NCBI GenBank assembly: GCA_016932785.1
Contig: JAFGCJ010000002.1
Location: 13,983-77,982 of the forward strand
Direction of reading: 5' to 3'
Length of the DNA: 64,000 nt
From: Candidatus Dojkabacteria bacterium
GTDB lineage: Bacteria; Patescibacteriota; Dojkabacteria; SC72; JAFGCJ01
The position numbers and the translations under genes are program-made. Under the pieces are notes generated by a model. That model searched no databases and was not told the origin of the DNA. It worked only from the letters and a program-made list of their open reading frames with translations. Position 1 is the first letter of the stretch; every line of letters starts with the position of its first letter. Shown here piece after piece: positions 2,563 through 37,821 of this stretch.

Positions 2563-5500
2563 CTACTCTATTCTAAAAGGCTCAATTATCTCTTTTACCT
2601 CGTCTGTAAGCTCGATACCACGTTTAAGCTGCATTGTTTTTACGTCATCTCCGTCGGGAATGGATATCATTACGGGTGTATCGCCGGGGTTTTCTTTTAA
2701 GGCTTGCTTAAGCCTCTTTATATCATCTTTGTTAGCGTTCGTAGGTATTCTCAAACTAAGTCCATCAGAAGACTTTGTAGCTTTGTCTAGATCAATGACT
2801 CTTAGCGAATCACAGATAATGCTTCTCGTTCCATCGCGAACATTAACCTTTCCTATAAATATGGTCGGAGTGCTCTCTTCAAGATTTTTTGAAAATTTTT
2901 CATACGTACTGGGAAAAAGAATTACCTCAATCTCACTGGTCTGATCTTCTATGAGGAGAAAGGCCATACGTTTATTTTCTTTCTTTGTCGAAATAGCTTT
3001 TATATTGGTTATAAGCCCGCATGCTTGTACGTGTGCATTTGGTTTCATCTGTTTTATTTCAGAAATATCCTTGACACCTATTGCTGAAAGGTATGACTTA
3101 ATTCTTCCAAGGGGATGGGCGGTAATATACATACCTAGAAGTTCCTTTTCCCATTCGATTTTGTTTGTGTCTGTGGCTGGCTCAACCTGTGGAAGTGGTG
3201 TCGGAGTAATCTTATGAGTCTGGCCTTCCTCTTTGCCCATAGAAAATATGTCAATCTGACCCTCTGCTTCAGAATTTTGTCTCTTCTTATAAGTCTCATG
3301 CATGGATGGGAGAGCGGCAAGTAGGCTGTTTCTTTCTCCAAAGTTGTCCAGAGCTCCTACTTGAACCAGATAGCTTATGGTTTTCTGGTTAATTTTATTA
3401 AGAGGAATTCGATACAGGAAGTCATCAAAGTTCTTGTATGGTCCGTCTTTGTCTCGAATATTTATGATAGTTCTGACTGCTGATTCACCGATATTCTTGA
3501 TTGCCGCCAGGCCAAATCTAATGTTGTATTTCTCTTCAATGGAAAAGCCAGATTTGCTTTTGTTTACGTCCGGAGGAAGGATGTTTATCCCTTTTCTGTT
3601 ACACTCCGCAATTATAAGAGAAATTTTATCGAAATCGTCGATTTCAGACTTGAGTAGTGCTGCCATAAATTCCACAGGATAATGAGTCTTTAGGTAGGCC
3701 GTTTGAAAAACGACTAGAGCATAGGATGCTGCATGTGGTTTGTTGAAAGCATAGTTTGTAAATGGAATGAATAGTTCAAACAGTGCCTCGGCTTTCTTTT
3801 CTGAGAGTCCGTTTTCCTCGAATCTCTTTAGTAGGTCGTCCTTCATATCAAACAATATCTCGGGTTTCTTTTTACCGGTAAACTTCCTCGCTTTGTCGGC
3901 TTCTGGCCAGGTCATTCCCGCAAGTGCTACTGTTGTCATCATTATATCCTCTTGATAAACAAGGAGTCCGTATGTAAGTGAGAGAAAGTCCTTCATTCTT
4001 GGATCAATGAAAGTAACAGATTTTTTCCCGGATTTTCTGTCGGCATATTCTTGTTGAAACTGGTTTGGTCCTGGTCTTACAAGAGCTAGAGATGCTGAGA
4101 TATCAAATATTGATTCTGGTCTAAGAACTTTCGCAGTGTTTTTCATGGGACCTGTCTCTAGCTGGAAGACCCCAAGAGTATCCAGATCTTTTATCAATTT
4201 GTATGTTGCTTCGTCATCAAGAGGGAATTTTGTTGGGTCAATATCAATTCCTCTTTCTTCTTTAATGATTTTTACTGATTCTGAAATAGTATCTAGACCG
4301 GTAAGACCAAGAAAGTCAACCTTGAGAAGCTTTAATTCCTCGAGTGAGTCCATTTCGTATTGAGTGATCATTCTGCCGTCTTCGCCTAGTGTTTTATCCC
4401 AGATTACAGGGCAATAGTCGACTATTGGTCCTGGCGTGACCAGGATTCCACATGCATGTATTCCCTGGCTTTTGGCGACACCCTCGATTTTTTTTGCGGT
4501 ATCTATCAATTTCGCCGCGTCGGGGTCTTGCTTGGTTAGCTCCTTTAATTCTGGAACTTCTCTTAGTGCCCTATCGATATCTACTTTTGCAAGTCCCTGT
4601 CCAGATGGCGGAATCAATTTTGCTATCCTGTCTACATATGCCAGGGGAAGTCCCAGTACTCGTCCGGCATCTCTTATGGATCCTCTGGCCTGCATTCTTC
4701 CAAAGGTAACAATATGGGCTACCGATTCTTTGCCATATAAATCTATAGCGTAGTTAATAACCTCTTCTCTTCTTGAGCTTGCTACGTCGATGTCAATATC
4801 CGGTGCTGACGGCCTTCCCTTGTAAAGGAACCGTTCAAAAGGAACCTGGAAATCCAGAGGATTTGCTGTGACTATACCTAGTATGTAGGATACGAAACTT
4901 CCCGCCGCTGATCCTCGAGTTGTGAAGGGAATATTGTTGTTCTTGATCCAATCTGTGAAATCCATGTTCATTACTATGTAGCTTGAGTACCCCATCTCAG
5001 AGATTACTTCAAATTCGTACTCTGCCCTCTTCTTCTCGTCTTTTGTTAATTCTCTATTGATTACTTTAGGAGCCCGCTGTTTTATGAGGTCGTACAGATA
5101 TTTGTCGTAGTCTTTTTTGTATGAATCCGGTATTGGAGGCTCAGGAAAAACCCAATCCTCAAATCCCAAATCAAAGACCTCGCACATATCTGTGACTTTC
5201 TGGGTGTTTTCTATGGCCTCAGGAATGTCTTGGAATAGCTCTTCCATTTGTTCAGGACTTTTGAGGTAGAATTCGTCTGTTTCCCTTGTCAGCCGCTGTT
5301 CATCCTCAAGTCTTTTCCCGGTATTTATGCACATAAGAACCTCTTGTGCCAGGGCATCCTCTTCTTTTATATAATGAACGTCGCAGGTTGCTATTAGTGG
5401 AAGCTCGAGATCTTCTGCTACCTGGATAAGGCCTTTATTTGCAACTTCCTGATCTTTCATACCGTTTCTCTGGAGTTCAACATAGAATCTATCCTTCCCA

Positions 5501-5991: not shown

Positions 5992-6180
5992 AGCAATATT
6001 CTACAGAAATTAAACTTTAATGAAAATTGTGTTGTAGAAATAGTGTTACTATGGGTATTTTTTGTGTAGATGTATGGTGGGTGTTTGAATAGGTTTGCAT
6101 ATTTAATAAAGACGTTATTAATAGTATAATCCTATAGTAATAAGATTCTACCTAAGTATCTTATATTTGTTTAGAAATTT

Positions 6181-23545: not shown

Positions 23546-24403
23546 ATGAAATTTCCTAATGTTCTTGACGGTCTGAATCGTGTTCTCAGACTTTGGCCGG
23601 TTGCTCTTGCAGTGATTGTTTTCTTAGTGATTCTTAACTCCACAGTGTTTACAGTCAAATATGGAACTGTCGGTGTGGTTACCAGATTCGATCGGGTCAC
23701 CGGAGATGTTGTAAAGCCAGGCTTGCACGTGAAGATCCCTTTTGTCGACCGTGTAGTCCTCTATAGAACTCAGAAGGTGATATACGAGACATTGGAGCAA
23801 GGATCAACCTCGAATGCAGACTACACTGACTATCCGGTGGACACGACCACGAGTGACGGCCAGCAGGTTTCTATTAGATATACTGTCCGTTTTTCCGTTA
23901 ATCCTAAGAAGGCAACATTTGTAGCAAACAACCTTGGAACGGAATCAGAAGTTGTTGAGAAAATTGTTAAAACCGACTCAAGAATTCACGCGAGAAGTAT
24001 ACCGAGAAAGTACAAGGCAATAGATCTTTACTCAGGGAACGTGGAGGTAGTCCAGGAAGAAATTGAGGAAATTCTTAGGCCGTTGTTTGAGGAGAACGGC
24101 TTAATTCTTGATGAATTTGGAATTCGAAGTATTAATTTCCAGGATGAATATGTTACAGCCGTTGAGGAAAAACAGATCGAGAGTGAACGGGTAAAGACAG
24201 AGGAATACAGAGCGCAGCAGGAGGAGTACAAGAAACAGGCAAAAATAACTCGTGCTGAGGGTGATGCCGAGGCTCAGCGCTTGGTGCAGTCTACTTTGAC
24301 TGATGCAATGTTGAAGAAGTTGTATATTGATAAGTGGGATGGTATTTTGCCTGGTGTTGTGGCTGGGGATAAGGGTGTGATTTTGGATCTGGGATCGCTT
24401 TAG
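23546..24403 (+). CDS. SPFH/band-7 (prohibitin/HflKC-like) membrane protein
   Basis: N-terminal TM followed by an SPFH core (VFTVKYGTVGVVTRFDRVTGDVVKPGLHVKIPFVDRVVLY). C-terminal coiled-coil with E/Q/K-rich segment. Confidence 0.7.
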   Translation: MKFPNVLDGLNRVLRLWPVALAVIVFLVILNSTVFTVKYGTVGVVTRFDRVTGDVVKPGLHVKIPFVDRVVLYRTQKVIYETLEQGSTSNADYTDYPVDTTTSDGQQVSIRYTVRFSVNPKKATFVANNLGTESEVVEKIVKTDSRIHARSIPRKYKAIDLYSGNVEVVQEEIEEILRPLFEENGLILDEFGIRSINFQDEYVTAVEEKQIESERVKTEEYRAQQEEYKKQAKITRAEGDAEAQRLVQSTLTDAMLKKLYIDKWDGILPGVVAGDKGVILDLGSL

Positions 24404-24413
24404 GCTTATAGTT

Positions 24414-24543
24414 GGGGGTCTGACCCCCGTCAGGTTTGACCCCGTTCTATAACGGTTACGGTCTATTTTTTAATGAAAATTTTGTTAAAACCCCAAGGTT
24501 AAAGTGTTTTCTTTGGGGACAGACCCAACGCGGGTCAGACCCC
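24414..24543. repeat. 130 bp MITE-like element, copy 1, with 13 bp terminal inverted repeats (GGGGTCTGACCCC / GGGGTCAGACCCC)
   Basis: Begins GGGGTCTGACCCCCGTCAGGTTTGACCCCGTT and ends GGGGACAGACCCAACGCGGGTCAGACCCC. Each end carries two tandem ~12 bp GGGTCNGACCCC-type motifs. AT-rich core. Lies between convergent genes and abuts the stop codon of the CDS at 24543. Confidence 0.6.
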
Positions 24544-25166
24544 TAGATCTGGTTCATCAATGCATTGACCTTAGCACCCCAGGCATCTGGAGTTACCGGA
24601 TTATAAGTAGGTGCTATTGCATAAGGATTGCTTGTACCATATCCATACCGCAAACCATATCCAACCGTGTATATAGCCTCATTGAAACTGTTGAATCCCC
24701 TTTGACCCCATCCGAAAGGATTGTATGAACGGAAACAATGGATTCCACCTGAAGATTCAACTATAGAAATTGCAGGTAACAAACGGTAGTCAAGTCCGAA
24801 TAAGTCAGAGACTTCAACTATGTAGTAAGCATTGGCGGCCATAGGCGAATTCCATCTGGCGTAGAAATTTCTGACTCTCTGAGCCTTGGCTTCTCTATCA
24901 GCAATTTGTTTTAGCTCGATTCCATGATTTTTTGCAAGATCGGCTTGTTTATTAAGGTGCGCAACTGAGATTTGCTCCTGATTTTCAGTATAGGGAGTAT
25001 TAATTTTACCTCTTCCAATATCTGTAGAAAATGAGGCATGTGCCTGTTGGATTGAGCTGTAGCTTGAGAGAACTCTTGACCAGAGGAGAATAAATAATAC
25101 GCTGCCAAGCAGAATCTTTTTTGTAATGTCGATTAGCTTCGTAACGTTTTTCTTTTTGGATATCAT
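24543..25166 (-). CDS. Membrane-anchored lysozyme-like putative peptidoglycan hydrolase, paralog B
   Basis: C-terminal block NSPMAANAYYIVEVSDLFGLDYRLLPAISIVESSGG...YNPFGWGQRG is homologous to the CDS at 7232-7957. N-terminal TM. Confidence 0.45.
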   Translation of the reverse strand: MISKKKNVTKLIDITKKILLGSVLFILLWSRVLSSYSSIQQAHASFSTDIGRGKINTPYTENQEQISVAHLNKQADLAKNHGIELKQIADREAKAQRVRNFYARWNSPMAANAYYIVEVSDLFGLDYRLLPAISIVESSGGIHCFRSYNPFGWGQRGFNSFNEAIYTVGYGLRYGYGTSNPYAIAPTYNPVTPDAWGAKVNALMNQI

Positions 25167-25336
25167 TCATGATATCATCAATATTATTCCGGTTGATGCT
25201 GGGTTTCGTTGTTTCATTGAGTGTCCCAGCGGTCTTCCGGTAAAGTTGCCCGTTTTTGGCAACTTTGGTCATTTTGTCATTATCGAAGCAGAATTATATA
25301 TGTTATGGGATATAAATTCAAGACTAAGAAAAGACT

Positions 25337-25987
25337 ATGATAGGGGCAATAAAAGACTATTTAATCGAGATTATTGACGCAATAGGCTATTTGGGGGTAT
25401 TCATTACTATGACCTTAAGTTCATGCTTAATACCAATACCTTCAGAGGTAGTTTTACCTTTAACAGGGGCACTTTCATATGAGGGGAAAATGAATGTGCA
25501 TCTTGCGGTTTGGGTTGCTACTGCGGGAAATATGGTGGGTTCGCTTATTGCATATTGGATTGGCATTAAAATAAATGAAAAGAAGCTGGTTGAATTAATA
25601 AACAGGTGGGGGAAGTTTATTCTGGTAAGTGAGCATGAATATAATATTGCAAGAAAATGGGTAAAGAAATATGGGAATGGAGTGTCTTTCTTTGGGCGTC
25701 TTATTCCTGGAATCAGGACGATTGTCTCTCTCCCTGCCGGAGTTGTAGGTGTAAAGCTTGTCCCTTTTGTGCTCTACTCTTTTGCGGGTTCTGTTGTGTG
25801 GAACTACATTTTGGCATTTTTGGGATATAAATTCGGCGAAAAATGGGAGGATTTGGAAGTTTATTTTGAGAAGTTCGATATTGCAATACTGGTGTTAATG
25901 GTGCTAGCTGTTGGTTTTTATGTTTATAAGAAAATATCTGGTAGGAGTGCAAAGAATGCTACAAAGAGGGCTAGGAAAGAAGCCTAG
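25337..25987 (+). CDS. DedA/SNARE-associated (VTT domain) membrane protein
   Basis: YLGVFITMTLSSCLIPIPSEVVLPLTGAL...GRLIPGIRTIVSLPAG is the DedA family signature. Confidence 0.7.
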   Translation: MIGAIKDYLIEIIDAIGYLGVFITMTLSSCLIPIPSEVVLPLTGALSYEGKMNVHLAVWVATAGNMVGSLIAYWIGIKINEKKLVELINRWGKFILVSEHEYNIARKWVKKYGNGVSFFGRLIPGIRTIVSLPAGVVGVKLVPFVLYSFAGSVVWNYILAFLGYKFGEKWEDLEVYFEKFDIAILVLMVLAVGFYVYKKISGRSAKNATKRARKEA

Positions 25988-27525
25988 CGAATAAGGCTTT
26001 TTCCTGTGATTTGCTCTGGTTTATTAATGCCCATAATGTCCAATATTGTTGGCGTGACGTCAGATAAAGCACCACTTTCGAGCATTTCTCTTGTGGTAAT
26101 TCTTTTGGGGGTGGCGAGTATGAATGGGACTGGATTGATTGAGTGTTCGGTATCAGTCTCTCCGGTTTTCAGGTTTGTCATTTCCTCAATATTTCCGTGA
26201 TCCGCTGTTATTATGGCTGTTCCTCCGAGTGAGTGGGTCGCTTTGACGATGTGTTGGACACTTTTGTCTACAGTCTGCATTGCCTTTAAGCCGGCATCGA
26301 AGACTCCCGTATGTCCTACCATATCGCCGTTTGCTAGATTTACAAGAATGAAGTTGTAGATTCTAAGTGAAATCTTCTCAAGGAGAATTCTTGTTACCTC
26401 GGGTAAGCTCATTTCTGGCTTGAGATCGTAGGTTGCAACGTCCGGTGATGGAACTTCGACCCTATCTTCAGCTTGGAATTTGATCGATCTTCCTCCATTG
26501 AAGAAGTACGTGACATGGGGAAATTTCTCTGACTCTGCTATTCTTAATTGTCTTCTTCCATCTTCAGCGATGATTCTGCCAAGAGGAAGACTAATATTCT
26601 CTTTTGGAAATGCTATGTGTTGTGGGATTCCCTTAGCATATTGAGTCATTCCGACAAAAAAGAGGTTTTGTGGTACCTTTTCTCTTTTAAAATAGGTAAA
26701 TTCTGGTGCTATGAAGGCATAAGTTAGTTCTACGGCCCTATCTGATCTAAAGTTGAGGAAGACGAACGCATCGTTGTTTTCAATTGTAATAGGTGTTGAA
26801 GTGCTAGTTATTTGGGTTGGCTGGATAAATTCGTCGGTCTCGCCTCTTTGGTAGGCCTGGTCCAGAGCTTCTTGCCAGGTATTTGCCTCGAGTCCCTTGC
26901 CTTCTGTGAAAAGGTCGTAGGCTTTCTGAATTCTTTCCCAAACCTGGTTTCTATCCATACCGTAGTATCTTCCCCCGATAGTTCCAATTGTGCCGATTTT
27001 GTATTTTTTGAGGAATTCTTGTGTTCTTTTTAGATAAGTAGCGGCGGATTTTGGTGGCGTGTCTCGGCCGTCAGTAAATGCGTGAACGATTACGGGCTGC
27101 TGAAAGTTGTGAAGTGATAGGGTTTTTATGAAGGCCTCCAAGTGGTTGATTGAGCCGTGTACTTCCCCGTCACTGAGGCAAACTGCGACGTGAAGTTTAC
27201 TTTTGTTTTCGTTGGCGTGGTTTATTGCTTCGAGAAATTCCTGATTCTGGAAAAATTGTCCTTTCTGGATCGAGCGGTTGATTCTCGGAAGGTCTTGGTA
27301 GACGACTCTTCCGCTTCCAAGGTTCATGTGGCCGACTTCGCTATTTCCTTTTACTCCGGGGGGAAGTCCGACATATTCTTCAGATGCCTGGAGATATGTG
27401 TGAGGGTAGCTGCTCCAAGCTTTTTCAAGAAATGGTGTAGGAGCTTTGGTTACAGCGTTGCCGGTTGTGTTTGGGGCTATTCCTACTCCGTCGAGTATCA
27501 GTAGTACAACGAGGGTGTTTTCCAT
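25984..27525 (-). CDS. gpmI: 2,3-bisphosphoglycerate-independent phosphoglycerate mutase (iPGM)
   Basis: N-terminal LILDGVGIAP...GNSEVGHMNLGSGRVVYQDL. C-terminal ADHGN metal-binding block. 513 aa. Confidence 0.85.
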   Translation of the reverse strand: MENTLVVLLILDGVGIAPNTTGNAVTKAPTPFLEKAWSSYPHTYLQASEEYVGLPPGVKGNSEVGHMNLGSGRVVYQDLPRINRSIQKGQFFQNQEFLEAINHANENKSKLHVAVCLSDGEVHGSINHLEAFIKTLSLHNFQQPVIVHAFTDGRDTPPKSAATYLKRTQEFLKKYKIGTIGTIGGRYYGMDRNQVWERIQKAYDLFTEGKGLEANTWQEALDQAYQRGETDEFIQPTQITSTSTPITIENNDAFVFLNFRSDRAVELTYAFIAPEFTYFKREKVPQNLFFVGMTQYAKGIPQHIAFPKENISLPLGRIIAEDGRRQLRIAESEKFPHVTYFFNGGRSIKFQAEDRVEVPSPDVATYDLKPEMSLPEVTRILLEKISLRIYNFILVNLANGDMVGHTGVFDAGLKAMQTVDKSVQHIVKATHSLGGTAIITADHGNIEEMTNLKTGETDTEHSINPVPFILATPKRITTREMLESGALSDVTPTILDIMGINKPEQITGKSLIR

Positions 27526-27548
27526 GTTTATATATTAGCATAAGATTT

Positions 27549-27678
27549 GGGGTTTGACCCCCGTTGGGTTTGACCCCGTTTTATAAAGCAGAGGAAACGT
27601 TTTATAATGAATTTTTTGTTAATTCGTTGGAATAAAGGGATTTCTGTTGGGGACAGACCTAGCCGGGGTCAGACCCCC
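27549..27678. repeat. 130 bp MITE-like element, copy 2, same family as 24414-24543
   Basis: GGGGTTTGACCCCCGTTGGGTTTGACCCCGTT ... GGGGACAGACCTAGCCGGGGTCAGACCCCC. The ends are near-identical to copy 1, the core has diverged, and the length is the same. Sits upstream of gpmI. Confidence 0.6.
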
Positions 27679-27720
27679 AACTATAGGACTTGCTTATAGC
27701 CTTAACTCCCCCCGAGTTAC

Positions 27721-28476
27721 TTACTTCTTCAAAAAAGACAGGATTTTTGTGAAATCCCTTATAACAAAATCTGCGCTGTTTACATAGCTATCATTCAATC
27801 CCTCAGTCAAAACCCCAACACAAAGAATTCCTGCGGATTTTGCAGATGCTATGCCATTTCGCGAGTCTTCAAAAACAACTGCCTCCTGTTTATCTACCCC
27901 AACTCTTTCTACAGCAATATTATATATTTGCGGACTAGGTTTTCCTTCTGATACGTCTTCGGCCGTCAAGGTAAAATCGAACAGCTTTTCAAGATCAAAG
28001 TGTTTCAATATAAGAGTCGCAAATTCTCTTACCGACGATGTTGCCAGACATGTCGGGTAGCACCTGTTTTTAAGAAAATGCAATAGATCTGGGACGCCAT
28101 CTTTAAGTTTTATAACCTCATCGGGGTGATTTTCCAGGTTATACCGTTTGCCTTTTCTAAAGTCGGAAATTAGCTCGTCTACGTCGTATTCGCTGACTTT
28201 TCTGTCTGCTAAGACTCCATCAAAGCCCTCTTTTGTTCTTTTACCGGAGAAAAACCTTTGGTAATCATCATTACTTAGGTCAATGTTGAAGAATTTTTTT
28301 AGAGTGTCAGCGTAGCCTCGATAGTTTAGTTGTTCTAGATCAACAATTGTTCCATCCATATCGAATATGAATGCTTTTTTGCGTCGAATTTCTTCTTTAA
28401 TTCCTTCAGGAATTTCTTCATTAATATCTGCCATATTTTTTTCTGTTGGAGGTTTTCTTGTCATAAACTTAGTCAT
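27721..28476 (-). CDS. HAD-superfamily IA hydrolase (beta-phosphoglucomutase/phosphatase-like)
   Basis: Motif I FIFDMDGTIVD. Motif IV VVFEDSRNGIASAKSAG. Confidence 0.6.
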   Translation of the reverse strand: MTKFMTRKPPTEKNMADINEEIPEGIKEEIRRKKAFIFDMDGTIVDLEQLNYRGYADTLKKFFNIDLSNDDYQRFFSGKRTKEGFDGVLADRKVSEYDVDELISDFRKGKRYNLENHPDEVIKLKDGVPDLLHFLKNRCYPTCLATSSVREFATLILKHFDLEKLFDFTLTAEDVSEGKPSPQIYNIAVERVGVDKQEAVVFEDSRNGIASAKSAGILCVGVLTEGLNDSYVNSADFVIRDFTKILSFLKK

Positions 28477-28540: not shown

Positions 28541-29227
28541 GTGTTATTTTTACCCGCGATGGATACGAATTTCATGAAGAAAGTTGAACAGGATACTGTT
28601 AAAAGAAATCTGGATGTGAGGCCTGGCGATACAGTCAAGGTTCATATTCTTATTAAAGAGGCCGGTAAGGAGAGAGAGCAGATCTTTGAAGGTGTTGTTC
28701 TGTCTGTTAGCGGTTCCGGTGCGCGTAAGACTTTTACGGTGAGGAAAATTAGTCACGGTGTAGGTGTAGAGAAGATTTTTCCCGTTAATTCTCCTTTGAT
28801 AAAGAAGATTGATGTTATGGAAAGGGGTAATGCACGGCGATCCAAGCTTTACTATATGAGAAAGAGGATTGGTAAGAGATCTTTGGATGTAAATCTTAAA
28901 GAGGGTTTTGAAGCTATTATTGAAGAGGAAGAAGTTGAGGAAAAACCGGAGAAGAAAGACGAAGAGCCTGCAGAAGAAAAGGTCGAGAAGAAGGCAGAAG
29001 AACCGGCCGAGGAAAAGGTTGAGAAGAAGACTCCCGCAGCCGAGGAAAAAGTTCCTGAAGCAGAAGAAAAATCCGGTGATGCTAAAGAGAAGAAGGCTCC
29101 TGCAAAAGCCAAAGCAGAACCTGAGAAAAAAGACGAGAAAAAAGAACCCAAGGATAACAAGAAATCCGCTGAGAAAGGATCTGAAAAGGCCCCTAAAAAA
29201 GACCCCCCAAAAGAAGCCAAAAAGTAA
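28541..29227 (+). CDS. rplS: 50S ribosomal protein L19 with ~110 aa K/E-rich C-terminal extension
   Basis: L19 core VRPGDTVKVHILIKEAGKEREQIFEGVVLSV...TFTVRKISHGVGVEKIFPVNSPLIKKIDVMERGNARRSKLYYMRKR. The tail contains EEPAEEKVEKKA twice (tandem 30 nt DNA repeat) and further KE/AP repeats. The true start is probably an internal Met near 28559-28574. Confidence 0.75.
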   Translation: MLFLPAMDTNFMKKVEQDTVKRNLDVRPGDTVKVHILIKEAGKEREQIFEGVVLSVSGSGARKTFTVRKISHGVGVEKIFPVNSPLIKKIDVMERGNARRSKLYYMRKRIGKRSLDVNLKEGFEAIIEEEEVEEKPEKKDEEPAEEKVEKKAEEPAEEKVEKKTPAAEEKVPEAEEKSGDAKEKKAPAKAKAEPEKKDEKKEPKDNKKSAEKGSEKAPKKDPPKEAKK

Positions 29228-30407: not shown

Positions 30408-30483
30408 GGGGCGCTAGCTCATCCGGTAGAGCAACTGGCTTTTAACCAGTAGGTGCGGGGTTCGAGTCCCCGGCGCCTCACCA
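30408..30483 (+). tRNA. tRNA-Lys (anticodon UUU)
   Basis: Manual fold: acceptor GGGGCGC/GCGCCTC, D arm GCTC-ATCCGGTA-GAGC, anticodon stem ACTGG/CCAGT with loop CTTTTAA (anticodon TTT), T arm CGGGG-TTCGAGT-CCCCG, discriminator A, encoded CCA. Coordinates are +/-1 nt. Confidence 0.85.
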
Positions 30484-30518
30484 CTTTTTATCGAGTTTTT
30501 TGGATTTTTCTGCTGTTA

Positions 30519-31322
30519 ATGTTATCTAAATATGCAATAAATAAGCAAAAGGGGAATATTGGAGAGGCATTTGTACAGTTTTTCTTATCTAGATTTGCGC
30601 TTGTTCATAAGGTGGATGGTGGAAATGATCTTGGTAATGATTTCTTCTGTGAACTATTTTTGGAGGAATATCCTACGAACATACTATTTTATGTACAGGT
30701 AAAGCTTTGGTGCTCTGAGCCTAGGGTTAAAGAATCTACAAAAGATTATTGGAGAAAGGCTCAGATACCTGTGTATTTATTCTGGGTGAAATGTGCAGGT
30801 AAAGAATTCGATGATATTGTTTTGGACGATGCTTTAGATGAAGCTTCATGGGTAGTTAAATATAAAAGAATGACAGCTGAGTTGCACAAAGAAAAGGCTG
30901 AAGGATTTGAAGATTTTGATTTGTTGAAATTTAAGAGAGATTTAATGATTGATTATGCTAGGTCGATGTTTATACGTGGTTTCACCCCTGTTTTTGATGC
31001 GGGAATGTTTTTCACAGAAAAGGAGAGAAGTAATCTTGACCTGGCTAGATTTCAAAATCCCGCGAGGAGCCTCATAAAGGAAGATCAATACGTAGAGACA
31101 GTACTTGATGAAAGCTGGTCTCATTTTATCTCTGTAGCACATTTGTTACATAGAATGTACAAAGAACTTAAGAAAGAAGAATATTTGAAAGGTGCTGAAG
31201 ACTGCATTAATCTTGCCGAAACATTATATGGAATATCTAATGTCACAGATGTTGATCATGTCTTGGCCTATTTATGGAGCGTAAAGAAAGAAATACGTAA
31301 TTCACGAAATCAGTTAGGTTAA
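30519..31322 (+). CDS. DUF4365-type PD-(D/E)xK nuclease-fold protein
   Basis: GNIGEAFVQFFLSRFALVHKVDGGNDLGNDFFCELF...ILFYVQVK reproduces the DUF4365 pattern (iGE...D.GxD...E...hVQVK, a restriction-endonuclease-like D/E-K core). The ORF-track GTG start at 30453 would overlap the tRNA-Lys 3' end, so the internal Met at about 30519 is preferred. Confidence 0.5.
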   Translation: MLSKYAINKQKGNIGEAFVQFFLSRFALVHKVDGGNDLGNDFFCELFLEEYPTNILFYVQVKLWCSEPRVKESTKDYWRKAQIPVYLFWVKCAGKEFDDIVLDDALDEASWVVKYKRMTAELHKEKAEGFEDFDLLKFKRDLMIDYARSMFIRGFTPVFDAGMFFTEKERSNLDLARFQNPARSLIKEDQYVETVLDESWSHFISVAHLLHRMYKELKKEEYLKGAEDCINLAETLYGISNVTDVDHVLAYLWSVKKEIRNSRNQLG

Positions 31323-31477
31323 AGGGTGCCTAATAAGTATTGATTGTCAATAATTTTCCTTGAAGCCAGATGAGAGAGCAATTCCTCACAGCAATGTTTA
31401 AAGCGATAGGCTGGGATATCAATAATGAACAAGGTTATGCAGAACAGTATAAAGAGGTTGTTCATGGAGACAAAGAG

Positions 31478-33049
31478 TTAATCCATATATTCTTTCAAAT
31501 ATTTTCTTAACCTCTTATCCACAACATACACATAAGTTCCACGAATGCCCCGTGTAAGCAATGTTTTGTAAATATTTTTAATGTAGCTTTCAAGCTCGTT
31601 CGGATCAGAAATAGCTCTTTTACCATTAAAATCAAGATATTTACTTTTGTCTATAACAATACTCTTTTTATCCTTGTCATATGAGATTTCCGGCCCAATA
31701 ATAACTCCAGCATAGTTAAGGTCATACCCCTGAATTGTATGGATGCAACCAACCTCATTTACGGCATTCTCTGAGTTGACCCAATCCTTTGTAACGCTGT
31801 TCCATCTTAACTTAACGTCGTCAATTTCTATATCGTAATCAATAGACTCATCTTTTTTGGTTTTCCATTCCCATGAGTACCCAGCTAATAGTCTTGAAAG
31901 TCCGATATTCTTGTCTTGTTCTTTTATGGCATCAACTAGTTCTCTTATATCGCCGAATAGCTTAAGTTCATATTCGTCGAATTTGACCTTCTCTTTCTGC
32001 TCGACATTGAGTATTCGTCTTATATATTCGATATAGTCCTGTCCGCCCCTCACTCTCATTTGGGAAATCAACGCGTATTCTTTCATCTTGTACTTTCTTA
32101 TATGGTGCTCCCTTATATCTGCTGGCTTAATGCTCTGATTTTTGTCGTAGAAAAGAACTTGATGTTTGGAGGAGTTAATAATCCAGTCTAGCTCAGTCCC
32201 CTCTTCTTTTTTGAGGCCTAAGGTTTTGTTTATCCTATCGAAGTCTCTGTAGTTAGTTAGGTTTACTCTTCTTTGTAATCTGTGCGCTTCATCAACAATT
32301 AATATGTCGTAATCGAATTTGATGACGTCGTTTGGTCCTATGACCATACCCGGATTTAATCCTTTTACTGATTTGAAGACTTTTTTTAGTGTTTTCCTTA
32401 GGGAAGTCATAGGAATTACCAAACCAATCCTGAGGTCTTGTGCCCAATCCTGTTCATATAGATATTTCATTAAGTATACCGCCACTATTGTCTTTCCGGT
32501 TCCTGGCTCTCCTGAAACAATACTGGTTTGGTGGCTGTCTTTTTTAATACTTTCCGTTATCTCCTGAACAACATTAAGCTGGTCTTCGCTAAGGCTTTTA
32601 TAGGGAGAATATTTAAACAAGTCACTATTTTCTATCTGAACAAGAGCTTGATTAGCCAGTTCTCTCTTTAGTAGTTCTTTCCATATAACTTCAAATTTTG
32701 CTTGATAACGTTCTCGGTCATAGTAGTCCGATTCTTTAACACCTGAATTACCGTTCTGGAGTAGATATTTGCCATCGCCGGACATGTATTTTATTAAGGA
32801 AGATTCAATGTCTAGAGTAGCCGATTTATTGTACTCGTCATCAGCAATTACATGTAAATTCTTCAGCCTTGCTCTTTCAGGATTTTCTATTTGTTGTTTT
32901 GCCCTATTATAAGCACTTACTGATTCTCCAACATATGCTTCTCTTCCATCTTCGATTATGTATACAATCGGCCAATTTAAGCCAAATCTGTAATCCTTAA
33001 TTTTCTGGATTGTGCTTGGAGTAAAACTGTATTTGGTTATCTCATACAT
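31478..33049 (-). CDS. GIY-YIG nuclease-like N-terminal domain fused to DUF2075 (Schlafen-helicase-like) P-loop NTPase
   Basis: N-terminal WPIVYIIEDGREAYVGESVSAYNRAKQ (GIY-YIG-like). Walker A IVSGEPGTGKT. Walker B/DEAH-like ILIVDEAHRL. The C-terminal region is typical of DUF2075 proteins. Confidence 0.6.
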   Translation of the reverse strand: MYEITKYSFTPSTIQKIKDYRFGLNWPIVYIIEDGREAYVGESVSAYNRAKQQIENPERARLKNLHVIADDEYNKSATLDIESSLIKYMSGDGKYLLQNGNSGVKESDYYDRERYQAKFEVIWKELLKRELANQALVQIENSDLFKYSPYKSLSEDQLNVVQEITESIKKDSHQTSIVSGEPGTGKTIVAVYLMKYLYEQDWAQDLRIGLVIPMTSLRKTLKKVFKSVKGLNPGMVIGPNDVIKFDYDILIVDEAHRLQRRVNLTNYRDFDRINKTLGLKKEEGTELDWIINSSKHQVLFYDKNQSIKPADIREHHIRKYKMKEYALISQMRVRGGQDYIEYIRRILNVEQKEKVKFDEYELKLFGDIRELVDAIKEQDKNIGLSRLLAGYSWEWKTKKDESIDYDIEIDDVKLRWNSVTKDWVNSENAVNEVGCIHTIQGYDLNYAGVIIGPEISYDKDKKSIVIDKSKYLDFNGKRAISDPNELESYIKNIYKTLLTRGIRGTYVYVVDKRLRKYLKEYMD

Positions 33050-33066
33050 AATTTTCGATCAGTTTT

Positions 33067-33423
33067 TTAGAGTTTTGTATATTTTTTGCTTGTTCCCTTA
33101 GCCTTCTCTACCGGGTATTTTTTGCTGTTTTGTTCGATTTTTTTTTGAACGATTTCGTCAATGTTAACATCGAGTGTTTCTGCTAGCAGTGCGATATATA
33201 TTAATATGTCGGCTAATTCCTCGATCACTTCTTTCTTGTCATACTTGGAGGTCCATTGAAAGCATTCTAGTAATTCTCCTGCCTCTATTGATATTGATTT
33301 GGCAAGATTTTCTTCTGAATGGAACTGTTTCCAATCTCTATCATCTCTAAATTTAATGAGTTTCTCTATGATTTCTCTTTTCATTAAAATTTCATTAAGA
33401 ATTGTTTTTTTTAATTCTAGCAT
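33067..33423 (-). CDS. MazG-like nucleoside triphosphate pyrophosphohydrolase
   Basis: EENLAKSISIEAGELLECFQW...EELADILIYIALLAETLDVNIDEIV carries the EExxE/D metal-binding helices of all-alpha NTP-PPase (MazG/HisE) proteins. 118 aa. Tail-to-head with the DUF2075 gene, 17 nt gap. Confidence 0.65.
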   Translation of the reverse strand: MLELKKTILNEILMKREIIEKLIKFRDDRDWKQFHSEENLAKSISIEAGELLECFQWTSKYDKKEVIEELADILIYIALLAETLDVNIDEIVQKKIEQNSKKYPVEKAKGTSKKYTKL

Positions 33424-34979: not shown

Positions 34980-35125
34980 TAACTCATCCCTCTCAAGATG
35001 TGTAATATCAAGGGCTTGGTTACAGAGGGCCCGTGCCTTTTGAGCAGTTATCCCTTTAAGTAGTTGTGAATATGGTAGTTGAAGATCAGCTATAGGTGAC
35101 GTGAATTAATTATATCATATGTAGC
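34980..35125 (-). pseudogene. Degenerate duplicate of the 5' end (first ~45 codons plus ~25 bp upstream) of the gene at 36876-37697
   Basis: About 88% nucleotide identity to 37560-37725 over ~145 bp. Start codon ATG is mutated to ACG. Reading frame is retained for ~45 codons (TSPIADLQLPYSQLLKGITAQKARALCNQALDITHLERDEL) before ending. Confidence 0.55.
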
Positions 35126-36875: not shown

Positions 36876-37697
36876 CTATTCAAACTCTCTCTCATAGGGT
36901 CTATTTTGCCTGATCCAGACTTCGGCCTCTCCGTCTCTGGTCAGGGGATCCTCGTTTAGAACAGCTTCAGCTGTAAGAGCGAGGTAATCCCTTACTCCCT
37001 CCGGCAGTACTTCACCTTCTGTTCGACAATCAAATTCCACTGAAAAATCTGCGTCAGCATCAAGAGTTGTAATGACTTCTGTTTTAATGCCGTCAATAGG
37101 AATTCCCAGTATTTTAGAAAATCTTGTTGCTACCTCTGTAGTGACGCGTTGAAATTGTTCGGTTTCTTTCTGTGATTCAGTCATATGTTCTGGACTAGAA
37201 ATTTCTCCGCTTAATAAATGAGCATTTGGAGAGAGAAAAAGTCTGATCTGGGGATTTCTTACTGCTGAGCCCCATCTACGCATTTCATCTTCTGTGAGTG
37301 TAGGAACTGGGTCTGGTGCGTCTTTTCTCCTTAGCATCCAAGCGGTTTCATCCCATACTCTAATGACGGTTCCTAGACCTGGGATTCCAGATTCCTTACA
37401 TAATTCCTGTATTTGTGTCCCAGCTGCGCTGATTTGTTCTTCGTTGGGACGAAAATCAACTCCTTCTTCATAAGTTCCGACACCCGCGGTTAGTTCTATT
37501 GCAAGAACTGTTCCGTCAGTTGCCTCTTTAGCTCCTTTCCCGACTCGTACCTCTCGATCATCTGGATCTAGCGTGTCTATTCCTAGCTCACGATGAGTTA
37601 TATCCAGGGCTTGGTCGCAGAGGGCCCGTGCCTGTTGTGGAGTTACCCCTTTAGGGAGTTGTGAATCTGGTAGTTGAAGATCAGCTATAGGTGACAT
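36876..37697 (-). CDS. Hypothetical protein (273 aa), locally GC-rich (about 47%)
   Basis: No recognisable motif. Codon usage is distinctly G/C-richer than surrounding genes. Its 5' end is duplicated as the pseudogene at 34980-35125. Confidence 0.45.
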   Translation of the reverse strand: MSPIADLQLPDSQLPKGVTPQQARALCDQALDITHRELGIDTLDPDDREVRVGKGAKEATDGTVLAIELTAGVGTYEEGVDFRPNEEQISAAGTQIQELCKESGIPGLGTVIRVWDETAWMLRRKDAPDPVPTLTEDEMRRWGSAVRNPQIRLFLSPNAHLLSGEISSPEHMTESQKETEQFQRVTTEVATRFSKILGIPIDGIKTEVITTLDADADFSVEFDCRTEGEVLPEGVRDYLALTAEAVLNEDPLTRDGEAEVWIRQNRPYEREFE

Positions 37698-37821
37698 GGT
37701 GCAATTATATCATAGGAGATAGAGTTTATGTTATGGGATAGTAGGGTTTTGGTTTGCGTGGGTTTGTCTTGTGGGGCGTGGCTGGTGTGTTGTAATTTTG
37801 CTTTCCACTATTTCGTATGTC

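Follow-up and report, generated by a model that had tools for sequence, protein, structure and literature searches.

A stretch of 64,000 nucleotides of Candidatus Dojkabacteria bacterium (contig JAFGCJ010000002.1, positions 13,983 to 77,982; the whole stretch is called the window below) carries two intergenic elements of 129 nt each, copy A at 24415-24543 and copy B at 27549-27677. On balance, these are probably doublets of repetitive extragenic palindromes (REPs), similar to the elements known as REPINs or as bacterial interspersed mosaic elements (BIMEs), which were spread by a REP-associated tyrosine transposase (RAYT) and then stayed resident for a long time. They are filed as REP doublets because the REP and REPIN traits described in PMC3733652 and PMC3116915 recur in them. 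A preliminary description of this DNA had placed both elements correctly, while the 130 nt that it gave to each were off by one flanking base; the length of 129 nt comes from direct reading of the sequence.

The basic unit of both copies is the 13-nt near-palindrome GGGGTCWGACCCC. Units start at 0, 16, 100 and 116 nt in copy A, in copy B and in a third copy from a related genome (contig L122). Site 1 of each copy is GGGGTYTGACCCC, followed by a 3-nt spacer and by site 2, nRGGTTTGACCCC, and site 3 is GGGGACAGACCYA, again followed by a 3-nt spacer and then by site 4, sGGGTCAGACCCC. Units paired at a 16-nt period form a 29-nt REP module of about 70% GC, and two inverted modules enclose an AT-rich core of 71 nt with 27-28% GC. 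Each site has a central T in the left modules and a central A in the right ones, and the modules are mutually reverse-complementary. The arms of the inverted repeat, 29 nt long with 83% complementarity and 71 nt between them, continue into TATAGTTGGGGG on the outer flanks of the A/B pair. Terminal inverted repeats had been proposed before, at 13 bp, which is too short; the two tandem sites seen at each end are also real and are better described as REP units than as transposase-binding half-sites. The parts of the two copies are the following.

24404..24414, + strand: outer left extension of copy A, GCTTATAGTTG, a TAG-containing 'head', reverse complement of the copy B right flank
24415..24443, + strand: left REP module of copy A, GGGGTCTGACCCC-CGT-CAGGTTTGACCCC
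24444..24514, + strand: spacer or core of copy A, 71 nt, 28% GC, with the conserved TTTTTTAATGAAAATTTTGTTAA
24515..24543, + strand: right REP module of copy A, GGGGACAGACCCA-ACG-CGGGTCAGACCCC
27540..27548, + strand: outer left extension of copy B, ATAAGATTT (for comparison, the L245 elements described below have ATAAGTTGGG at their ends)
27549..27577, + strand: left REP module of copy B, GGGGTTTGACCCC-CGT-TGGGTTTGACCCC
27578..27648, + strand: spacer or core of copy B, 71 nt, 27% GC
27649..27677, + strand: right REP module of copy B, GGGGACAGACCTA-GCC-GGGGTCAGACCCC
27678..27687, + strand: outer right extension of copy B, CAACTATAGG, inverted relative to 24404-24414

The degenerate two-site pattern GGGTYTGACCNNNNNNNGGTYTGWCCC has four matches in the 64 kb, which are exactly the four element ends, and none in 100 shuffles. 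The single-site pattern, with up to 2 mismatches allowed, has 17 matches in the window against 3.2 expected, and 14 of the 17 are inside A and B. Both copies are non-coding and, as described before, intergenic and (judged by their cores) in direct orientation, with near-identical ends and diverged AT-rich cores: identity between A and B is 86-90% in the ends and 58% in the core, which corresponds to differences at 7 of 58 end positions versus 30 of 71 core positions (Fisher p = 1.7e-4).

The L122 contig belongs to a relative with 68% gpmI identity and has a single element, again of 129 nt and with its four sites at these spacings, located directly past the stop codon of the orthologous Band_7 gene and in the orientation of copy A. 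The Band_7 genes of the window and of L122 share 76% identity, and the blastn alignment of the two sequences is continuous from Band_7 through the element. Copies elsewhere, which the preliminary description had envisaged, are thus represented by this ortholog of copy A and by the end motif in hundreds of other loci. Four-fold degenerate sites of the window and L122 are 31% identical, against a random expectation of 27%, so neutral DNA is saturated between them; despite this saturation the modules are identical at 45 of 58 positions (p = 4e-11), being either constrained or kept uniform in another manner. The L122 core has diverged by indels, with its TTTTGTT motif displaced by 10 nt, and the total length is still 129 nt. 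Copy A probably lay downstream of Band_7 before the window and L122 lineages split, and both A and B look like old residents and not like recent insertions.

The hairpin potential suggested for the ends in the preliminary description extends to the whole element: on the core-orientation strand, the elements form long hairpins with energies of -57 to -68 kcal/mol (z = -4 to -7). In each of the three copies (A, B and that of L122) this strand is favoured over its complement by 4-23 kcal/mol, because the mismatches are G-U pairs on it; for A and the L122 copy it runs in the Band_7 sense, and for B it is antisense to both neighbours. As single-stranded DNA, the 29-nt module (13 + 3 + 13) folds at -7 to -9 kcal/mol. 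Double compensatory changes are found in 5 of the 40 pairs of the three-sequence consensus, and some compensatory pairs fall in the 3-nt spacers between sites, outside the 13-mers. No U-tract follows either hairpin, and promoter and terminator scans gave chance levels. An Rfam scan of the window at the gathering threshold reported two tRNAs only, and at E <= 10 the matches over the elements were chance microRNA hairpins only. That the elements act as structured RNAs or terminators, an alternative of the preliminary description, is possible. GC skew is positive in 28 of 32 intervals of 2 kb, so the + strand is probably the leading-strand sequence, i.e. the lagging-strand template; IS200/IS605-type enzymes act on the lagging-strand template.

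Pattern scans, which record presence and not counts, found the end motif in at least 116 GTDB genome loci and at least 120 JGI metagenome loci, dominated by GC-rich taxa. Among the matches listed, the motif occurs at 32-76% GC and most are from Actinomycetota; the other taxa are several Proteobacteria classes, Acidobacteriota, Planctomycetota, Elusimicrobia, Omnitrophota, Victivallales and candidate division WWE3. Complete genomes with the motif include those of Marinobacter (NZ_CP101118) and Parapusillimonas (NZ_CP197474). Viral contigs gave no match to the end pattern, and a literature search for the 13-mer returned unrelated primers and virus sequences only. The typical forms are inverted doublets and GGGGTCTGACCCC-GAA/GCA-GGGGTCTGACCCC hairpins with a central T-T mismatch, the perfect module being GGGGTCTGACCCC-GAA-GGGGTCTGACCCC. 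The partner module of one Actinomycetes metagenome-assembled genome (MAG) uses GGGGACAGTCCCC, in which T-A is flipped to A-T and the palindrome is kept. In L145, a metagenome contig of 42% GC, tandem sites with the 16-nt period are found at both ends of an AT-rich core, and other taxa have dense motif populations, such as 15 sites over 8 kb in L014.

Doublets of the form (G/C)TAGGGTCTGACCCC-GAA-GGGGTCTGACCC, a spacer of about 30 nt and GGGGACAGTCCCC-TTC-GGGGACAGTCCCTA were observed in L001, L005, L006, L008, L035, L053 and L062, which are Actinomycetes and Gaiellaceae MAGs, and their partner module carries the compensated T-A to A-T flip. Other Actinomycetota MAGs have the hairpin within a longer conserved repeat (GCATCAGTCCGCC...CAGCCTTT).

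In other genomes the 13-mer is associated with RAYT genes. A first search of six-frame open reading frames (ORFs) from the fetched loci, with E. coli YafM as the query, gave four matches adjoining the motif. Pfam assigns Y1_Tnp to all four RAYT-like ORFs tested, the best NCBIfam match is NF047646 (REP-associated tyrosine transposase) for 8 of 8 tested, with L084 above the cut-off, and database homologues of the motif-flanked RAYTs carry the source name RayT. A profile built from the first matches (hmmsearch) and run on motif-selected loci totalling about 1.5 Mb detected 14 RAYT-like ORFs, ten of which have motif sites within 600 bp of the gene; in L084, L165 and L208 all sites of the locus flank the RAYT gene. 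A motif-independent test is provided by P0121, a protein picked solely as the closest homologue of the L084 RAYT: its contig, L250, has only two GGGGTCTGACCCC sites in 5.4 kb, and both flank the P0121 gene. The head is also shared, since the L084 REP is TAGTTGGGTCTGACCCCC and the left end of copy A is TAGTTGGGGGTCTGACCCCC; the TAGTTGGG head, as at copy A, is beside the L084 RAYT gene, and ATAG or TTAG heads are also present in L077 and L250. A tight RAYT clade behind the shared motif was considered and rejected, the motif-flanked RAYTs being no closer to each other than to motif-free RAYTs. The only candidate-phylum RAYT seen is that of L077, from WWE3 in the Candidate Phyla Radiation. In L077, GGGGTCTGACCCC hairpins with ATAG heads are found in three nearby intergenic regions (1916-1944, 2834-2846 and 6037-6065).

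REPINs were described in P. fluorescens SBW25 as inverted REP doublets that form hairpins, in which the spacer is less conserved, length and hairpin capacity are critical and compensatory changes are common (Bertels and Rainey 2011, PMC3116915). REPs are palindromes of 20-40 bp with a terminal tag and stems of 5-13 bp, they are mostly downstream of genes and flank RAYT genes, and their HH and TT dimers have 20-100-bp spacers that may keep length and not sequence (Di Nocera et al. 2013, PMC3733652). The E. coli REP/BIME goes with TnpA-REP (RayT/YafM) (Messing et al. 2012, PMC3479197), and mRNA stabilisation and termination have been proposed as roles of REPs (PMC3733652; PMC3479197). The Dojkabacteria elements share with REPINs the inverted conserved REPs, the variable spacer of kept length, the compensatory changes, the extragenic placement, the lack of target-site duplications and, for this 13-mer seen only in other genomes, the unit that flanks RAYT genes. 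With the GTAG REP families they share the 29-nt imperfect palindrome, the dimers, the mostly downstream placement and, again in other genomes, the RAYT flanking. Unlike in REPINs, each module here is a tandem of two 13-nt near-palindromes with a 16-nt period, the 13-mer is common to several phyla and to divergent RAYTs, and the host is a small-genome candidate-phylum bacterium and not a proteobacterium such as SBW25. The GGGGTCWGACCCC sequence family was not found in the literature searched.

Elements of the ERIC/IRU (about 127 bp), Correia and RPE families are imperfect palindromes or miniature inverted-repeat transposable elements (MITEs) that are intergenic, have no coding capacity and are probably transcribed. 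A and B resemble them as imperfect palindromes of about 130 bp that are intergenic, non-coding and probably transcribed. These families have their own unrelated sequences, and Correia elements make TA duplications; none is known to be built of tandem 13-mers common to RAYT flanks. PATEs, which derive from IS200/IS605, have hairpins at both ends, make no target-site duplication and depend on a Y1 transposase acting on single-stranded DNA. Both end hairpins of IS200/IS605 are read on the same strand, whereas the modules here are reverse-complementary, with T-T mismatches on the left and A-A on the right. An IS200/IS605-type element was rejected because the modules are inverted and not in same-strand orientation.

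If A and B are REP doublets, a RAYT (HUH/Y1) acting on single-stranded DNA hairpins would have generated and spread them without target-site duplications, and the whole element would fold into the long hairpin when single-stranded. A lack of clear target-site duplications is expected for Y1 transposases. A long residence would have followed the spread, with the ends kept and the spacer not. Mobilisation by a RAYT in this lineage is what we infer from these likenesses, and any present function has the same standing. Speculatively, copy A may serve two convergent transcripts as a 3'-end hairpin, and copy B may be a structure in the gpmI leader.

Several observations weigh against this assignment. 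In place of the canonical GTAG, the head reads ATAG at the left of A, at the right of B and in L122, CTAG at the right of A, TAAG at the left of B, and TTAG in L122 and L250; the window has no strict GTAG. Actinomycetota doublets have (G/C)TAGGG. The stem with its central T-T (A-A) mismatch is another difference from GTAG REPs. Only two copies are visible, far below the hundreds typical of classical REPs, and in the window plus 10 kb past each of its ends (about 84 kb of the source genome) there are neither further copies nor a RAYT gene. The motif-flanked RAYTs are mutually 27-58% identical, and one 13-mer with such divergent RAYTs would be unexpected if each RAYT and its REPs co-evolve. A different hairpin, ATCACACCTCCAAGGTGTGAT, borders the RAYT-like gene of L077 on either side (3283-3310 and 4005-4030). 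The inner sites of the L122 copy keep sequence and not complementarity, which fits a dimeric DNA-binding protein equally well as a hairpin.

The other contrary observations come from L245 (JGI Ga0072724_107293), which has a Band_7 gene 76% identical to that of the window and the same gene order. Both orthologous positions of L245, 8865-8973 and 12105-12211, are taken by another palindromic family, about 110 bp long, with the terminal inverted repeat GAATAAGTTGGGATACAT and two mutually inverted copies whose ends are 88-95% alike. The arm motif is GGGATACATGTATCCC in L245 versus GGGGTCWGACCCC in the window and L122, and the L245 and window elements share only the terminal ATA(A)GTTGGG and the inner GTTGACC. 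In L246, with a Band_7 92% identical to that of L245, the position of copy A (position A) is empty and the convergent stop codons overlap (TTAG). L245 has at position A a 208-bp insertion, including a 109-bp palindrome, within an 11-bp direct repeat, AACTAGATTTG, and such a repeat is not typical of Y1 transposition. When L245:8853-9084 is set beside L246:1875-1890, the 11-bp repeat looks like a target duplication. L247 and L249 have canonical bidirectional terminator hairpins at position A. Copies resemble each other more within than between genomes, which could reflect occupancy that is ancestral and has changed in concert, a trans factor with which the copies co-evolve, or hot spots that were invaded repeatedly. 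The states of the sites in L245, L246, L247 and L249 keep alive an explanation by host cis-elements and, more weakly, one by a duplication-generating transposase.

According to the first of these, which is possible if rather unlikely, A and B are not mobile DNA but resident host cis-elements under selection, whose sites bind a dimeric protein with looping of the spacer or whose transcribed hairpins end or stabilise mRNAs, and a trans partner co-evolves with them. The occupancy of both positions in two genomes of saturated synonymous divergence (the window and L245) agrees with this, as do the greater likeness of copies within genomes, the conservation of the modules far above neutral sites, the length of exactly 129 nt in three copies despite internal indels, and the L122 inner sites that preserve sequence in place of complementarity. 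Sites 1 and 4 are 116 bp apart (about 11 helical turns) and sites 2 and 3 are 84 bp apart (about 8). The palindrome may do the same job as the terminator of L247 and L249, and in each of the three copies the G-U pairs favour folding of the core-orientation strand, which has the Band_7 sense in A and the L122 copy. However, the better-folding strand of copy B is antisense to both neighbours, the hairpins lack a U-tract, and scans for promoters and terminators do not exceed chance. The genes beside the elements include no conserved DNA-binding gene, and close relatives lack the element, including the empty L246 site with its overlapping stop codons. A 13-mer found across many phyla and flanking RAYT genes is a REP signature and not that of a lineage-specific operator.

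A different form of residence, which we consider unlikely, is that of domesticated boundary elements: a clade of Dojkabacteria would keep a palindrome pair after Band_7 and upstream of gpmI, with arms that change in concert and a trans partner that has few sites per genome of about 1 Mb. This partner would be either a RAYT-like enzyme turned host factor or a DNA- or RNA-binding protein. Retention would be limited to the terminal ATA(A)GTTGGG and the general geometry, and the putative 13-nt recognition core of the partner would be common across phyla.

The genes around the two copies bear on whether the elements ever moved them, and are the following.

23546..24403, + strand: Band_7/SPFH (prohibitin-family) gene, by Pfam; copy A begins 10 nt past its stop codon
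24543-25166, - strand: ORF of 207 aa, no Pfam match
25337-25987, + strand: DedA/VTT gene, by Pfam
25984-27525, - strand: gpmI, by Pfam
24543..27525, no strand assigned: the three resident genes between the copies, context and not cargo, by Pfam and synteny

Copy A exactly occupies the interval from the Band_7 stop codon to the convergent stop codon of the 207-aa gene, whose CTA (TAG) takes its first base from the final C of the copy. Copy A and the L122 copy are extragenic and directly past the Band_7 stop, while copy B lies after a HAD hydrolase gene, confirmed by Pfam, and before gpmI, ending 23 nt upstream of the gpmI start codon. Pfam confirms the dedA and gpmI genes named in the preliminary description and gives no support to the 'lysozyme-like' nature that it gave to the 207-aa ORF.

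The order L19 ... gpmI - VTT - 207aa ... DUF192 - mnmA is kept in L118-L121, L245 and L249, which are without GGGGTCWGACCCC sites, and gpmI-VTT-207aa is in this order in L118-L122, L245 and L249 whether elements are present or not. The GGGGTCWGACCCC sites are absent from L118-L121, L245 and L246-L249. Since the gene order is kept in element-free relatives, the three genes are chromosomal residents, and the earlier view of the copies as bracketing them like cargo does not hold; a composite transposon was rejected on this synteny. In the window, L245, L247 and L249, Band_7 has DUF192 on one side and the 207-aa gene on the other, and in L122 Band_7 is placed, with its downstream element, between L19 and gpmI (L122:1221-4559 versus window 23546-28476). 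A local rearrangement shifted Band_7 and its element as a single unit between L122 and the window.

The preliminary description had also proposed non-autonomous transposon relics, and A and B are of this general kind, as short palindromic intergenic repeats. It is decidedly unlikely that they are classical MITEs, i.e. deletion derivatives of a DDE-type insertion sequence whose transposase binds the tandem sites, the genes between them having perhaps once moved as a composite. The terminal inverted repeats of at least 29 nt with two repeated sites per end, and the size of about 130 bp with an AT-rich core, are those of a MITE, and the palindromic insertion of L245 is inside the 11-bp direct repeat while the sister site in L246 is empty. 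In L245, however, this repeat bounds the 208-bp segment and not the 109-bp palindrome. Tn3-family inverted repeats begin GGGGTCTGAC, and the element ends resemble this start, but the resemblance spans 10 nt only; with no 38-bp inverted repeat, the Tn3 family was rejected. The target-site duplications sought by the preliminary description are not evident in the flanks of A, B or the L122 copy, where the sole direct repeat at copy A is TAG, which doubles as the two stop codons. The GATCTGG common to both flanks of copy A was rejected as a duplication, the left one being within the Band_7 codons GAT CTG GGA. Both the window and the 10 kb past either end are free of transposase genes and of any autonomous partner that shares the terminal inverted repeats, relatives show the gene order between the copies to be ancestral, and the sole protein found in association with the motif is the Y1/HUH RAYT. 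Integron attC and Xer/dif sites were also rejected, since by eye their geometry and core motifs do not fit.

It is very improbable that A and B are only a local duplication, in which a paralogous intergenic palindrome arose from a Band_7/gpmI rearrangement and was never mobile. The two copies seen are 3.1 kb apart, and the single copy of L122 with its altered Band_7/gpmI position fits a duplication followed by loss. Against this, the gene order of the window is the common one (L245, L247, L249), L245 likewise has two elements at the same two positions, the end motif is genome-wide in other taxa and next to RAYTs, and duplication alone leaves conserved ends with a variable core unexplained.

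Other features of the window are separate from these elements. A second pair of direct repeats, at 34992-35119 and 37587-37714, of about 130-150 nt, 86% identical and 2.6 kb apart, surrounds a DEAD-box helicase gene; its sequence is unrelated to A and B, and its G+C-rich stretch (GGGCTTGGT..CAGAGGGCCCGTGCC) might be structured. Three genes that directly follow tRNA-Lys (30408-30483) look like a small defence-type island (window 30408-33423), made of a weak DUF4365-like ORF, a Schlafen-group-3-type helicase (31478-33049) and a MazG-like pyrophosphohydrolase (33067-33423). Ribosomal protein L19 (28541-29227) has a long Lys/Glu/Pro-rich C-terminal tail encoded by 36-nt repeats (28928-29028).

REPs and REPINs have been studied almost wholly in Proteobacteria, and the literature search found no paper that ties them to the Candidate Phyla Radiation. 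The elements A and B are not a new kind of system, and their phylum is one for which no earlier report of such elements was found. If they are REP doublets, the pair should not be annotated as a composite transposon, nor gpmI and dedA as mobile cargo. A REP class based on one 13-mer would then span from soil Actinomycetota to ultra-small Patescibacteria and would accompany RAYTs that are only about 30-60% identical, which is awkward for the view that one RAYT co-evolves with one REP. Single copies would outlast synonymous saturation at an orthologous site, which would support REPINs as long-lived and vertically inherited elements.

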